Origin: a virus
Taxonomy: Duplodnaviria > Heunggongvirae > Uroviricota > Caudoviricetes
DNA length: 64,000 nt
IMG/VR virus record: IMGVR_UViG_3300032294_002926
Direction: 5' to 3' (one strand)
Shown here: in pieces, positions 26,011-30,014 of the stretch
How the letters are laid out: every line of letters begins with the position of its first letter
How positions within the stretch are numbered: the first letter of the stretch is position 1
Position numbers and translations under genes: made by a program
The notes under the pieces: generated by a model
Databases searched by the model: none
What the model was told of the DNA's origin: nothing
What the model saw: the letters and a program-made list of their open reading frames with translations, nothing else

Positions 26011-27036
26011 ATGAAAAAATACGATGTAATTGTTTTTATTGGTAGATTTCAACCATTTCATAATGCTCATTTAGAGATCATTAAACGAGCAACAGAACTT
26101 GCAGAACACATTGCAATTATTGTTGGATCTGCAAATCAACCCAGAACATTTAAGAATCCTTTCTCTTATGAGGAAAGAGAAGATTTAATCAATAAAACTT
26201 TAATGATGATGAAGATGAACACTAATTACAGTATTCATCCAAACCAAGATACTATTTACAATGACGATTCTTGGGCAACAAGAGTTCAAAATGTTGTAAA
26301 CAAAATTAATCCTTTTGAAAGTTCTAGAATTGGAATCATTGGGCATAAAAAGGACGAGTCTTCTTTCTACCTTGATATGTTTCCTCAATGGAACTTAATT
26401 GAAGTTCCTTTGATTGAAGAATTAAGTGCATCTCAGATTCGTCAACTTTATTTTAAACGAGACTTTAATTCAAATTTTATTAAGAATGTTCTTCCTCAAG
26501 AAGTTCTGGACTTTCTCAATAAATTTTCTCAAACAGAAGATTATCAACAAATTCTGAAAGAGATTAATTTTGTTGAGAAATACAAATCTCAATATGCTTC
26601 TTTCCCATATCCTCCAACCTTCGTGACTGTGGATGCTGTTATAGTGCAATCGGGGCATATTCTAATGATTCGTCGTCGTGCAGAACCTGGAAAAGGACTT
26701 CTTGCTCTACCTGGTGGATTCTTAGACGCTTTGAGTGATAAATCTTTAGAGGATGCTATGATACGGGAGGTAAGGGAAGAAACTCAACTCAAGGTGCCTG
26801 CTCCAGTTCTTCGTGGTAGTATTGAGGAAGCAAAAGTTTTTGATGCTATTGAACGTAGCACAAGAGGTAGAACAATCACTCATGCATTTCACATCAAACT
26901 TCCTAACGGAGAACTTCCAAAAGTGAAGGGAGGAAGTGATGCTACATCTGCAAAGTGGATTCCAATTTCTAAAATCACTCCAAATGAGTGCTTTGAAGAC
27001 CACTATGAAATCATTAATTATTTTACTGGAGTCTAA
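26011..27036 (+). CDS. Bifunctional NMN adenylyltransferase / Nudix ADP-ribose pyrophosphatase (NadM-Nudix, NatV-like)
   Basis: N-terminal VIVFIGRFQPFHNAHLEII (HxGH nucleotidyltransferase); C-terminal Nudix box GGFLDALSDKSLEDAMIREVREETQL. Confidence 0.8.
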   Translation: MKKYDVIVFIGRFQPFHNAHLEIIKRATELAEHIAIIVGSANQPRTFKNPFSYEEREDLINKTLMMMKMNTNYSIHPNQDTIYNDDSWATRVQNVVNKINPFESSRIGIIGHKKDESSFYLDMFPQWNLIEVPLIEELSASQIRQLYFKRDFNSNFIKNVLPQEVLDFLNKFSQTEDYQQILKEINFVEKYKSQYASFPYPPTFVTVDAVIVQSGHILMIRRRAEPGKGLLALPGGFLDALSDKSLEDAMIREVREETQLKVPAPVLRGSIEEAKVFDAIERSTRGRTITHAFHIKLPNGELPKVKGGSDATSAKWIPISKITPNECFEDHYEIINYFTGV

Positions 27037-27567
27037 ATGAAAACCATCAAAGGAGACTTAATCAAACTTGCCGAACAAGGCGAGTTTAATATGATTGTGC
27101 AAGGATGCAATTGCTTTCATACTCAATCTTCTGGGTTGGCAGGACAACTTGTATCAAAGTATCCACAAGTATTAGAAGCAGATAAAACACAATCCAAATA
27201 TGGAGACAAAGAAAAATTAGGAACTTGGAGTGTTGCTGAGATTGGTAATTTTACTGTCATTAACGCATATACTCAATACTCTTTTAGTCGTAAAAAAGAT
27301 GTTTTTGAGTATGATGCTTTCGATAAATTTCTAAATGACTTTACGAATATGATAGAATATTATGATTCAATGGCAAATTTTGACTGGAAACCAGATGGAA
27401 ATAATGTTCGTGTTCGTGAATTTAAAAGATTTAGAATTGGTTTTCCTCAAATCGGTGCTGGACTTGCTGGTGGCGATTGGAGTAGAATTTCCAAGATGAT
27501 TGAAAAGTTTTCAGAAGATGTCTCTGATTATGCTGACGTAACTGTGGTGGAATATCAACCTTACTGA
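27037..27567 (+). CDS. Macro-domain (ADP-ribose binding/processing) protein
   Basis: GDLIKLAEQGEFNMIVQGCNCFHTQSSGLAGQL parallels the macro-domain GDIT..DAIVNAAN..GGGGVAGAI core. Confidence 0.55.
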   Translation: MKTIKGDLIKLAEQGEFNMIVQGCNCFHTQSSGLAGQLVSKYPQVLEADKTQSKYGDKEKLGTWSVAEIGNFTVINAYTQYSFSRKKDVFEYDAFDKFLNDFTNMIEYYDSMANFDWKPDGNNVRVREFKRFRIGFPQIGAGLAGGDWSRISKMIEKFSEDVSDYADVTVVEYQPY

Positions 27568-27711
27568 ATTTTGTTACTAGTTACAAGGAAAATATTGGGT
27601 CCATGTTAAATAACATGTCCTTTGATTAATTTGATAGTCAGGTGTAAAGACTATAAAACACGAACTAACGATAGACGTTAGTTTATTCATTAACATTTTA
27701 AGGAGTTTAAA

Positions 27712-28248
27712 ATGACTATTAATAAAACAATTCTGTTGAACACCGATTCTTACAAGTTTTCGCAATACAATCAATATCCCGAAGGGACTACGAATGTATA
27801 TTCCTATGTAGAAAGTCGTGGAGGTACTTGGAACCAAACTGTTTTCTTCGGACTTCAAATCTTTCTGAAAGAGTATCTGTCTAATCCTATTACTCAGGAT
27901 GATATTGATACCGCAGAACTTATTACTCAAGCACACGGAGAACCTTTCAATCGTGAAGGTTGGGAGTATATTCTTCGTGAACACGGTGGTAAGTTGCCTA
28001 TTCGTATTAAAGCAGTTCCCGAAGGTTCTGTAATTCCTGTAAAGAATGTTCTTGCGACTGTTGAGAACACTGACCCTCAATGTGCCTGGATTACAAGTTA
28101 CATTGAGACTTCACTTCTCAGGAGTATTTGGTATGGAACTACTGTTGCTACCAACTCTTATGAGAGCAAGAGGATTATTCACGATTACTTGGTGAAGACT
28201 GGAGACCCAAGTTTGATTGAGTTCAAACTGCACGATTTCGGTGCTTAA
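27712..28248 (+). CDS. nadV: Nicotinamide phosphoribosyltransferase (NadV/NAMPT), exon 1; reading frame runs into an in-frame stop inside the intron
   Basis: LLNTDSYKFSQY...KLHDFG aligns with the NAMPT N-terminus up to the conserved HDFG(Y/A)RGVSS junction. Confidence 0.8.
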   Translation: MTINKTILLNTDSYKFSQYNQYPEGTTNVYSYVESRGGTWNQTVFFGLQIFLKEYLSNPITQDDIDTAELITQAHGEPFNREGWEYILREHGGKLPIRIKAVPEGSVIPVKNVLATVENTDPQCAWITSYIETSLLRSIWYGTTVATNSYESKRIIHDYLVKTGDPSLIEFKLHDFGA

Positions 28249-29171
28249 TTAACTTCGGGCACCTAACTTTGTGAACTGCTGGAACCCCTAAGTTGCTTAG
28301 GTAATATGGAAATCAGCATCCAAGACTACTATTTTAGTAGTAAGGTTCAGAGACCATCGAAAAGGTTATTTACAAATAACACTTAGTAGAGTACACTCAA
28401 GCGAGTGGAAGCGCAAAGGCGATACTATGTATCGTAAGATATGGTCCAATCTTCATTGAAAAATGAAGCAGTTCATACTCAGCATAAATACTTCCAGACC
28501 AAAATTGTAAAATATTTATGTTGAAACTATTAGAAACTATACCTAGTTTAGAAACATTTAAGGGGTATTCGATTTCAGATGATGGTAGAATCTTTTCACA
28601 TAAGACTAACAAATTTCTGAAAACGAGTATAAGAATGGGAAATGGATGTGCTTATGGAAGAATTGGATTAAACGATTCTAACGGAATCCGTAAAACAATT
28701 TCAATTCATAGACTCGTTTGTTTAGCATTTAAATATAACCCCAACCACAAAAATCTAACTGTGAATCACATAGACGAAAACACTTTTAATAATCATATTG
28801 ATAACTTAGAGTGGATGCCTCTTTCTGAAAACATTAGATATTCTCAGGCAAACAAAAGTTATGTCGGAGACCCAGATAAACTTACATTAGAGTTTAATGA
28901 AGGAAACTACACGGTACAGGAGTTTGCCAAAAAGTATAATACTCCATTAAATACTATGTGGGATATTCTAAACAAATTAGGTTCAGTCAAAAACAACAAA
29001 AAAAGAAGAGTCTTTGGTAAAAAAATACGACTTGAAATTGCTTTAATGAGAAAATCAGGAAAAGCACTAAAAGAAGTATCTGAAAAGTATCAATGTTCTC
29101 AATCTTTTGTTTCTTTAGTTTTTAAAGAGTATGAACGGGGTATGCTTAGCGAACATGCCTGAATAACTCCG
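28246..29171 (+). mobile_element. Putative group I intron (~0.92 kb) splitting nadV, carrying an HNH homing endonuclease ORF
   Basis: The NAMPT alignment breaks after LHDFG(A) and resumes at RGVSSFESAGIGG ~925 nt later. ~270 nt non-coding structured leader; boundaries follow U (5') and G (3'). Confidence 0.55.
28518..29162 (+). CDS. HNH homing endonuclease (HNH_3 / AP2-domain type, I-HmuI-like) inside the nadV intron
   Basis: SIHRLVCLAFKYNPNHKNLTVNHIDENTFNNHIDNLEWMP is the HNH_3 core; C-terminal helix-turn-helix-like basic tail. Confidence 0.7.
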   Translation: MLKLLETIPSLETFKGYSISDDGRIFSHKTNKFLKTSIRMGNGCAYGRIGLNDSNGIRKTISIHRLVCLAFKYNPNHKNLTVNHIDENTFNNHIDNLEWMPLSENIRYSQANKSYVGDPDKLTLEFNEGNYTVQEFAKKYNTPLNTMWDILNKLGSVKNNKKRRVFGKKIRLEIALMRKSGKALKEVSEKYQCSQSFVSLVFKEYERGMLSEHA

Positions 29172-29177
29172 CGAGGA

Positions 29178-30014
29178 GTGTCCTCTTTTGAGTCTGCTGG
29201 TATCGGTGGTCTCGCACACCTTGTAAACTTCAAGGGAACGGATACAGTCACCGCTCTTCTTTACGGTAAAGAATACTACGACATTTATATGGCAGGATTC
29301 TCTATTCCCGCCAGTGAACATAGTACCTGCACCTCTTGGGGTAGGGAAGGTGAAGAAGATTCTTACCGTAATATGGTAAAACTCTACGGCAAACCTGGTT
29401 CTCTATTTGCTTGCGTAAGTGATAGTTATAACATTTACGATGCTTGTCATATGTGGGGCACTGTGTTAAAGGATGATATAATCAACTCTGGTGCAACTCT
29501 TGTAGTTCGCCCAGATAGTGGACATCCACCAGAAGTGGTAATAAATTGCCTTCAACTTTTAGACAAATATTTTGGACACACGATCAATGAGAAAGGATTC
29601 AAAGTTCTTAATTATGTTCGTGTAATTCAGGGTGATGGTATTACTCAAGATACGATTGACCGTATTCTTTATAGAGCAATGACTGCTGGTTATTCTTCAG
29701 ACAACATTGCTTTCGGTCAAGGTGGTAAACTGCTTCAGAGTATTGACCGAGACACTCAAAAGTTTGCTATGAAGTGTTCTTCTATTGAAGTTAACGGAGA
29801 GCAACGCGATGTCTATAAGAGTCCGATTACCGATATGGGTAAAGAATCCAAGAAAGGTCGTGTAACTCTCTATCGTAATGATGAAGGTTACTTCACCGAC
29901 TTGGAAGGTAGGACTGATGCGGTAGAAGTTCTTGAAACTGTATTTGAGAAAGGTGAACTGGTCAAAGAATATACCTTTGATGAGGTTCGTAAAAATGCTT
30001 CGGTGATTATCTAA
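29178..30014 (+). CDS. nadV: Nicotinamide phosphoribosyltransferase (NadV), exon 2 (true exon start ~29172 at Arg-Gly-Val; the tracked ORF starts at an internal GTG)
   Basis: RGVSSFESAGIGGLAHLVNFKGTDT... matches the NAMPT C-terminal half through to the end. Confidence 0.8.
   Translation: MSSFESAGIGGLAHLVNFKGTDTVTALLYGKEYYDIYMAGFSIPASEHSTCTSWGREGEEDSYRNMVKLYGKPGSLFACVSDSYNIYDACHMWGTVLKDDIINSGATLVVRPDSGHPPEVVINCLQLLDKYFGHTINEKGFKVLNYVRVIQGDGITQDTIDRILYRAMTAGYSSDNIAFGQGGKLLQSIDRDTQKFAMKCSSIEVNGEQRDVYKSPITDMGKESKKGRVTLYRNDEGYFTDLEGRTDAVEVLETVFEKGELVKEYTFDEVRKNASVII

Follow-up and report, generated by a model that had tools for sequence, protein, structure and literature searches.

A NARP2-type NAD+ reconstitution module with an Adpp-like macro-domain gene and an intron-split nadV in a T4-like cyanophage

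A 64-kb stretch of tailed-virus DNA (IMG/VR record IMGVR_UViG_3300032294_002926; hereafter the window, to which all coordinates refer) carries at 26011..30014, on the + strand, three genes encoding a bifunctional NadM-Nudix enzyme, a macro-domain protein and a split NadV. NAD+ depletion is among the commonest bacterial anti-phage strategies, and the NAD+ reconstitution pathways NARP1, NARP2 and NARP3 are known phage counters to it. We consider it probable, though by no means certain, that the three genes form a NARP2-type pathway extended by a branch that cleans up ADP-ribose (ADPR). The open reading frames (ORFs) of this module lie exactly where a first-pass annotation, made from the sequence alone, had placed them (26011..27036, 27037..27567 and, for nadV, 27712..28248 plus 29178..30014). 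The related loci with which they were compared bear L numbers (L001 is Synechococcus phage B3; L002, L004, L018 and so on are others). The principal features are as follows.

26011..27036, + strand: nadM-Nudix, predicted bifunctional nicotinamide mononucleotide (NMN) adenylyltransferase and Nudix ADP-ribose pyrophosphatase, 341 aa (Pfam CTP_transf_like and NUDIX)
27037..27567, + strand: macro-domain protein of the Poa1p / Adpp / T4 Tk.4 family, 176 aa (PHROG 335, BLASTP, profile and fold comparison)
27712..28245, + strand: nadV exon 1, codons 1-178, ending ...KLHDFGA (NAMPT_N, E=3e-30; colinear with the intron-less NadV of B3, L002, L007 and L009)
28246..29171, + strand: group I intron, 926 nt (Rfam RF00028, 61.3 bits against a gathering score of 50, E=4e-13)
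29172..30014, + strand, stop codon at 30012..30014: nadV exon 2, codons 179-458, starting RGVSSFESAG (NAPRTase, E=8e-48)

The two outer genes define the core of the module. NadM-Nudix scores 422 bits against the NCBIfam equivalog NF003786, whose cut-off is 397, aligns over its full length with its best solved relative, the Synechocystis NadM-Nudix 2qjo (E=6e-89), and shares about 35% identity over 98% of its length with the protein of KVP40-like vibriophages. The two nadV ORF pieces match Pfam NAMPT_N and NAPRTase, and joining the exons yields a protein of 458 aa that passes the equivalog NF006629 (626 bits against 405), is colinear with the bacterial NAMPT 7yqo (E=4.8e-166) and has 45% identity to the NadV of KVP40-like vibriophages across 100% of its length. 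Since NARP2 is defined by NadV together with a NadM-type Nmnat, the pair in the window counts as NARP2, and these full-length homologies and equivalog matches assign it to the KVP40 type, in agreement with the first-pass annotation. The NARP2 of KVP40 itself (NadV plus NatV/NadM-Nudix; Lee et al. 2017; Osterman et al. 2024) comprises these two enzymes, alike in domain architecture and encoded close together on one strand as they are in the window, where 675 nt separate nadM from nadV; the window differs by the macro gene placed between the two and by the intron in nadV. The KVP40 system is experimentally anti-defence: it overcomes Thoeris and DSR2 (bioRxiv 10.1101/2024.02.11.579819) as well as aRES, a defence based on a RES domain (10.64898/2026.01.28.702374). 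NARP3 (PnuC plus NadR) was considered for the module and dismissed, as the genes differ. As an empirical rule, NARP1 and NARP2 do not occur together in one phage (Osterman 2024), and our searches of the window for NARP1 genes, a NADAR gene or a second macro gene found none; likewise, tblastn with the River4 Adps gave no match in the 64-kb window, which is part of a genome.

The middle gene follows nadM with 0 nt between the nadM stop codon and its own ATG. Taken alone, this ORF scores 16.7 bits against the Pfam Macro family (PF01661), below the gathering score of 22. Among 50 close relatives, 45 match PF01661 at E<=0.01 (best 3.7e-07), and the top match of the family profile is yeast Poa1p (E=2.8e-11), followed by BT1257, a Streptomyces macrodomain, DarG and TARG1. 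An AlphaFold2 model of the protein (predicted local distance difference test score, pLDDT, 86; predicted template modelling score, pTM, 0.83) retrieves Poa1p first in Foldseek and then the TARG1 and DarG macro domains, all with a probability of 1.00. The macro fold anticipated for this gene was thus recovered through its relatives, its family profile and its model, whereas the MacroD-type catalytic Asn/Asp/His set that had been expected gave way to membership of the Poa1p / Adpp / T4 Tk.4 type. The protein falls into PHROG 335, annotated 'phosphatase' (E=4.6e-45), which includes T-even tk.4, and relatives are plentiful: 1,377 were found in a large protein collection, JGI having given many of them the name O-acetyl-ADP-ribose deacetylase, and 2,529 phage records contain homologues.

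Within this family, the comparison with Adpp is the most informative one. Adpp is a Poa1p-like macro protein present in 15% of NARP1 operons, where it dephosphorylates the ADPR-1''-phosphate (ADPR-1''P) released when RES-domain (aRES) proteins cleave NAD+, making it usable by NARP1 (10.64898/2026.01.28.702374). Using the sequence of the purified Adpp of Vibrio phage Gary, taken from Table S1 of that preprint, we found 30% identity to the macro protein (BLASTP E=5e-18) and a set of common motifs, namely CNC, GxG(I/L)A, NxY(T/G)QY and IGxGLAGGDW. The Adpp orthologue of River4, encoded between Adps and Namat, is also homologous to the macro protein and likewise belongs to PHROG 335. The best solved-structure match is Poa1p, an ADP-ribose-1''-phosphate phosphatase that acts in yeast tRNA splicing. 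Among the residues that its crystal structures have served to probe, S30 corresponds to T29 and F152 to A144 in the macro protein, and Adpp has Ala at the F152 position too. By homology, the macro protein is therefore of the Poa1p/Adpp/Tk.4 type and predicted to be an ADPR-1''-phosphate phosphatase.

We then considered whether the macro gene belongs to the module or merely neighbours it. To this end, we compared the 80 IMG/VR loci with the best matches to the macro family (the macro-anchored set) and 67 loci with NadV relatives and enough upstream sequence (the nadV-anchored set). In the macro-anchored set, nadM and nadV both lie within 6 kb of the macro gene in 42 of 80 loci, or in 32 of the 55 that extend at least 3 kb on both sides; 37 of those 42 show the order nadM, macro, nadV, and Adps takes the place of these partners in only two of the 80. 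Seen from nadV, 64 of the 67 loci have nadM, 35 have the macro gene and four have a NADAR gene. The loci are related to one another, so that these counts do not represent independent events. The arrangement persists down to about 35-40% macro identity and is thus an old and common one. Because the same gene order recurs, we take the macro gene to be a genuine part of the module and its adjacency not to be due to chance.

The interval between nadM and nadV can also hold other genes, a variability that the first-pass annotation had not mentioned. The nearest sequenced relatives of the window, Synechococcus phages B3 and B23 (Kyanoviridae), carry nadM (341 aa) and nadV in the same order within gp46-gp49, with identities to the window of 56% for nadM (B23) and 62% for NadV (B3 and B23). 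In B3, nadV has no intron, and the slot gene gp47 (L001 4255..4785) encodes a protein of 176 aa. Its matching length and position made gp47 a candidate macro orthologue, which we rejected because BLASTP detects no homology; it is a NADAR protein (E=1.7e-47). NADAR genes occupy the slot also in L088, L090 and L161, whereas L007, L004 and L021 have NADAR and macro genes side by side, L004 adding genes for DUF723 and DUF1937 proteins. The nadM-nadV interval thus behaves as a variable cassette site.

This slot, together with the fold, gives some weight to a different function of the macro protein, that of an eraser stripping ADP-ribose off phage DNA, RNA or proteins after their modification by host ADP-ribosyltransferases, DarT for example; its placement next to NARP2 would then reflect a shared counter-defence islet and not a shared pathway. 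The fold does resemble the macro domains of TARG1 and DarG, with a faint NCBIfam DarG match in addition, and the NADAR genes that replace or adjoin the macro gene are suggestive, given that phage NADAR proteins (AdfN) act against DarTG1 by taking DarT1 ADP-ribosylation off DNA (PMC11825919). Residue comparison speaks against it. In an hhalign alignment (probability 92.5%) with TARG1, whose sequence was checked against the Protein Data Bank (PDB), the catalytic K84 and D125 correspond to Q80 and A144 of the macro protein, both invariant or nearly so across the family; DarG was aligned through the fold search alone. With the TARG1 catalytic Lys and Asp replaced, a TARG1-type glycohydrolase mechanism gains no support, either in general or for the reversal of protein or DNA ADP-ribosylation that had been suggested earlier. 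Moreover, the closest characterised relatives, Poa1p and Adpp, are phosphatases and not glycohydrolases. We therefore regard an eraser as improbable. A further proposal, that the protein degrades or sequesters an ADP-ribose-derived immune signal (the Thoeris signal glycocyclic ADPR, or His-ADPR) and thereby stops the response before effectors are activated and NAD+ is lost, strikes us as very improbable. Macro-mediated breakdown of ADP-ribose-derived signals has been proposed (PMC7824862), two of 50 family members match Pfam ThsA_Macro and a ThsA macro structure appears at rank 49 among the fold matches, but Poa1p and Adpp match far better than the ThsA macro domain does, and no supporting gene context was found.

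Returning to the phosphatase reading, a close organizational parallel is the Gary NARP1-AP operon (Adps - Adpp - Namat; bioRxiv 10.64898/2026.01.28.702374), in which a macro gene of the same family likewise sits between two NAD+ reconstitution genes. The partners differ, being Adps and Namat in Gary and NadM-Nudix and NadV in the window, so that the window gene is Adpp-like by homology while its operon, lacking Adps and Namat flanks, falls outside the NARP1-AP definition. The two arrangements also differ in what the phosphatase can supply. In NARP1-AP it provides the ADPR that the pathway needs, which is the one published role of a phage Poa1p-like macro enzyme, and the same work shows NARP2 to manage without this enzyme. 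As NARP2 uses no ADPR, the product of the macro enzyme in the window could only feed the Nudix domain. That about half of the related NARP2 loci carry a macro enzyme beside the Nudix fusion even though NARP2 needs none suggests a second job for it, namely the recycling or the detoxification of ADPR-1''P.

The sequence establishes what the genes are, their order, the splice junction and the homologies; from these we infer the enzyme activities, a coupling between the macro and Nudix steps and a role in counter-defence. That this role would be directed at NAD-targeting systems of marine picocyanobacteria, as the first-pass annotation proposed, is a conjecture. The nadV mRNA would first lose its group I intron through self-splicing. 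NadV would then make NMN from nicotinamide and phosphoribosyl pyrophosphate (PRPP), and the N-terminal domain of NadM would adenylate NMN to NAD+, steps that we deduce by homology to the tested KVP40 system. In the second branch, the macro enzyme would convert ADPR-1''P, or a similar 1''-substituted ADPR, to ADPR, which the Nudix domain of NadM would split into AMP and ribose-5-phosphate; from these, the host could regenerate ATP and PRPP, the co-substrates consumed by NARP2. The notion in the first-pass annotation that the macro and Nudix enzymes together process ADP-ribose fits the Poa1p/Adpp-type homology. Comparative genomics of jumbo phages had already led to the prediction of a route, next to phage NAD synthesis, in which Macro or NADAR proteins and then Nudix enzymes process ADPR-1''P (PMC7824862), so the idea itself is not new. 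Already known, too, are NARP2, the Adpp-like macro phosphatases of NARP1 and group I introns with HNH endonucleases; what is new here is that NARP2 is combined with a macro gene, that this combination is highly frequent and that nadV serves as an intron target. Our literature searches found no report of a three-gene form of NARP2 or of its frequency.

Several observations weigh against this pathway. First, NARP2 alone cancels aRES defence in Escherichia coli (10.64898/2026.01.28.702374), so that the known phenotype does not require a phosphatase. Second, no cyanobacterial name that we searched for appears in the supplementary tables of that preprint, its list of aRES genomes included, and there is little evidence for NAD-depleting systems in marine Synechococcus, Thoeris-related genes being reported in one metagenomic study (PMC10696648); these points, like the first, argue against a simple anti-aRES role. 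Third, the macro family is also found away from NAD genes. The B23 homologue (52% identity to the window protein) lies about 25 kb from the NAD module of that phage; in the large Vibrio phage D527 (254 kb; the only vibriophage context examined), a homologue stands beside pnk and an RNA ligase gene, with no nadM or nadV within 5 kb; and in T-even phages the family is annotated as tk.4, from the tk region, the 'tk.4 phosphatase' being 39% identical to the window protein. Finally, Poa1p H23, which is His also in Adpp, is replaced by Gln (Q22) in the macro protein. At this position, 121 close relatives have His in 80 cases, Gln in 39 and Ser in two. The change could reflect a shifted substrate or mechanism. 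The Gln at residue 22 and a nearby change from AMGGGIAK to TQSSGLAG mark a subclade.

An auxiliary metabolic module is another reading of the same genes. The operon would then raise NAD(P) for phage DNA synthesis and photosynthetic metabolism instead of serving counter-defence, and the macro enzyme would clear ADPR-1''P or O-acetyl-ADPR arising from ordinary cell or RNA-repair reactions. Several lines of evidence agree with this: NadM-Nudix is closest to a cyanobacterial housekeeping enzyme (2qjo), NARP2 makes excess NAD+ with or without an active defence (bioRxiv 10.1101/2024.02.11.579819), and host-like genes for metabolism and translation abound in the window (psbA, a gene resembling tyrosyl-tRNA synthetase (TyrRS), PTH2 and tRNA genes). 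Set against them are the ability of KVP40 NARP2 to overcome Thoeris, DSR2 and aRES, and the occurrence in the same slot of NADAR, phage versions of which are known counter-defence enzymes (PMC11825919). The metabolic and counter-defence readings involve the same biochemistry and are not mutually exclusive; as a replacement for counter-defence we hold a purely metabolic role to be unlikely, if less so than an eraser.

Coming back to NARP2 with an ADP-ribose branch, it is tempting to speculate that nadM-Nudix, an Adpp-like macro gene and nadV represent a distinct and widespread 'NARP2 with associated phosphatase', which rebuilds NAD+ and recycles ADPR-1''P. We put this forward tentatively and with more doubt than belief. 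If it were true, the frequency of this pathway in aquatic phages would mean that hosts, picocyanobacteria included, commonly use NAD+ phosphorolysis of the RES type, or some other source of ADPR-1''P, as a weapon, and the nadM-nadV interval would serve as an exchangeable site for counter-defence genes that process ADP-ribose (macro, NADAR, DUF1937). The macro gene in a cyanophage NARP2 also prompts one to ask which process generates ADPR-1''P in cyanobacterial hosts.

Within the intron that separates the two halves of nadV lie the following elements.

28253..28263, + strand: internal guide sequence 5'-CUUCG|GGCACC-3', read from the sequence
28518..29162, + strand: intron-encoded HNH homing endonuclease, 214 aa, with NUMOD4, HNH_3 and helix-turn-helix domains
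29139..29159, + strand: 3'-terminal intron hairpin GGUAUG / CAUGCC, overlapping the last endonuclease codons

The intron boundaries were set from the intron-less alleles of B3, L002, L007, L009 and L013 together with the P1 and P10 pairings. For P1, 28258..28263 pairs with the end of exon 1 (GGUGCU, 28240..28245), placing a U.G pair at the splice site; for P10, 28253..28257 pairs with the start of exon 2 (CGAGG, 29172..29176). The base before the intron is a U (28245) and the last intron base a G (29171). The RF00028 core covers about 28265..28468; Rfam places the start of P1 at 28184, inside exon 1, a placement that the intron-less alleles and the P1/P10 pairing led us to reject as wrong. Exon 1 ends ...GGTGCT, and exon 2 begins at 29172 with CGAGGAGTG. 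In the spliced product, ...KLHDFGA|RGVSSFESAG..., the residues FKLHDFGARGVSS are identical across the junction to those of the bacterial NAMPT 7yqo. Splicing restores the active-site motif HDFGA|RGVSS, leaving intact the catalytic residues whose possible disruption at the junction had been a concern of the first-pass annotation, and the GTDT, EHST and RPDSG motifs are all kept.

The endonuclease belongs to PHROG 59, 'HNH endonuclease' (E=2e-38), and exceeds the Pfam cut-off for NUMOD4 (27.2 bits against 23.4), while its HNH_3 match is marginally below (24.2 bits against 24.8). This homing endonuclease, absent from the first-pass annotation, has a GC content of 0.31 over its gene, compared with 0.39-0.40 in the exons. 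The gene is positioned 3' of the ribozyme core, past the P9 hairpin, a layout that we take to resemble that of T4 nrdB/sunY. A homologous intron occupies the identical site in L018 and L011, with 80-86% DNA identity and intact endonuclease orthologues, whereas NadV identity to the window protein is about 88% in L018 and 53-68% in L011. The intron is thus conserved more strongly than the gene that hosts it, which is the pattern expected of a homing element. Alignment with these two introns reveals compensatory changes in the P8 and P9 hairpins and in the 29139..29159 hairpin (U.G to U-A in L018, A-U to G-C in L011). The L018 intron scores 60.9 bits against RF00028, and the L011 intron stays below the Rfam threshold. 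Intron-containing and intron-less nadV alleles share one insertion site.

At first glance, the insertion could also mean that nadV is a broken pseudogene and that the module no longer rebuilds NAD+, considering that the frame closes with a TAA at 28246..28248 and that 926 nt lie between the halves. We give this next to no credence and rejected it: the insert exceeds the Rfam gathering score for group I introns and has the correct P1 and P10 pairings and a terminal G, the joined exons encode an uninterrupted NadV with all conserved motifs, and in three lineages neither the exons nor the endonuclease gene are disrupted. To judge from its sequence, then, the insert is a group I intron predicted to be self-splicing, a selfish element separate from the NAD module, which would home into the conserved HDFGA|RG codons via its HNH endonuclease. 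Other phage group I introns (T4 td, nrdB/sunY and nrdD; S-PM2 psbA; Pf-WMP3 DNA polymerase) are likewise inserted at conserved active-site codons, likewise come with homing endonucleases (of the HNH type here) and likewise vary in presence among close relatives; the window intron differs from them in its host gene, nadV. In our literature searches, no report of an intron in phage nadV was found.

Two further kinds of insertion were seen in the nadV genes of related loci. In L004 (6928..9243; also in L008, L015, L016 and L017), NadV is 771 aa long owing to an in-frame insert of about 310 aa, which splits RPD / SGHPP within the conserved RPDSG motif. With Cys as its first residue, ...GN at its end and Ser as the next residue, the insert resembles an intein that bears a homing endonuclease domain. 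In L066 (6544..9184; also in L064 and L065), nadV is divided into ORFs of 236 aa and 233 aa with a GIY-YIG endonuclease ORF of 378 aa between the halves, the break falling a few residues after ...SIPASEHS, just past the EHST motif; Rfam found no intron at the L066 split. Taken together, nadV has been hit in these relatives at three sites by three kinds of selfish element (intron, intein-like insert and GIY-YIG split), of which the intron and the intein-like insert sit in conserved NadV motifs and the third break lies a few residues off EHST. The insertions make nadV a compact natural system for homing studies. The region around the module in the window is rich in selfish elements as well, with a free-standing endonuclease gene of the LAGLIDADG_2 type (18553..19149), a homing-endonuclease-like gene on the - strand inside the tRNA cluster (24760..25365; PHROG HNH and homing-endonuclease families) and an endonuclease gene of the HNH_5 type (31344..31823).

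As to expression, the following candidate transcription signals flank the module.

25875..25902, + strand: sigma-70-like promoter match TTGACT-16-TATGAT (10 of 12 consensus positions)
25929..25957, + strand: sigma-70-like promoter match TTGACT-17-TATGAT (10 of 12 consensus positions)
30036..30058, + strand (30036..30066 with the T run): terminator-like hairpin of 10 pairs, 5 of them G-C

Both promoter matches fall between the gene for tRNA-Thr and nadM, and the hairpin starts 22 nt past the nadV stop codon. Promoter-like sites in the region are not more numerous than in shuffled sequence, and the two listed are matches to the consensus and no more. Within the unit, terminator-like matches of lower strength, at 26390..26408 (nadM) and 27944..27966 (nadV exon 1), lie in coding sequence. 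With no strong terminator-like match between the promoters and the hairpin at 30.04 kb, the consensus matches would fit a single transcription unit comprising nadM-Nudix, the macro gene and nadV.

The window derives from a T4-like cyanophage, as seen from a PhotoRC-II RNA motif upstream of psbA and from its many tRNA genes. Similarity to B3 and B23 at the DNA level is about 74% and limited to a few patches, and a megablast search of the module against 50,697 phage records returned a single 38-bp match and no close sequenced relative. The neighbours of the module encode HNH endonucleases, a phosphoesterase, a porin-like ORF, tRNAs, a TyrRS-like protein and PTH2; domain and PHROG searches tied none of the flanking genes to NAD or RNA ligation. 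The phosphoesterase gene (30786..31334; a metallophosphoesterase, PHROG 547 'phosphoesterase', E=2e-52, with a weak PdeM-like match) begins about 0.7 kb past the terminator-like hairpin behind nadV, and we found no evidence tying it to the NAD module. Upstream, 20709..22254 encodes a PTH2-type peptidyl-tRNA hydrolase (E=4e-34) followed by a protein of 393 aa with a Trp/Tyr tRNA synthetase domain (class I, PF00579, E=7e-70) and a weak match to the TyrRS C terminus. These two genes lie between tRNA-Arg (20258..20332) and the tRNA cluster at 24461..25875 and are unusual for a cyanomyovirus. An Rfam tRNA match of 120 nt (48070..48189, 39.7 bits), absent from the ARAGORN output, has an A+T-rich insert of about 50 nt between recognisable tRNA halves and may be an interrupted or decayed tRNA gene. 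Finally, the ORF of 500 aa at 32059..33561 combines a hydrophobic, signal-peptide-like N terminus with SLH and OprB porin domains and looks like a phage-encoded cyanobacterial outer-membrane porin.

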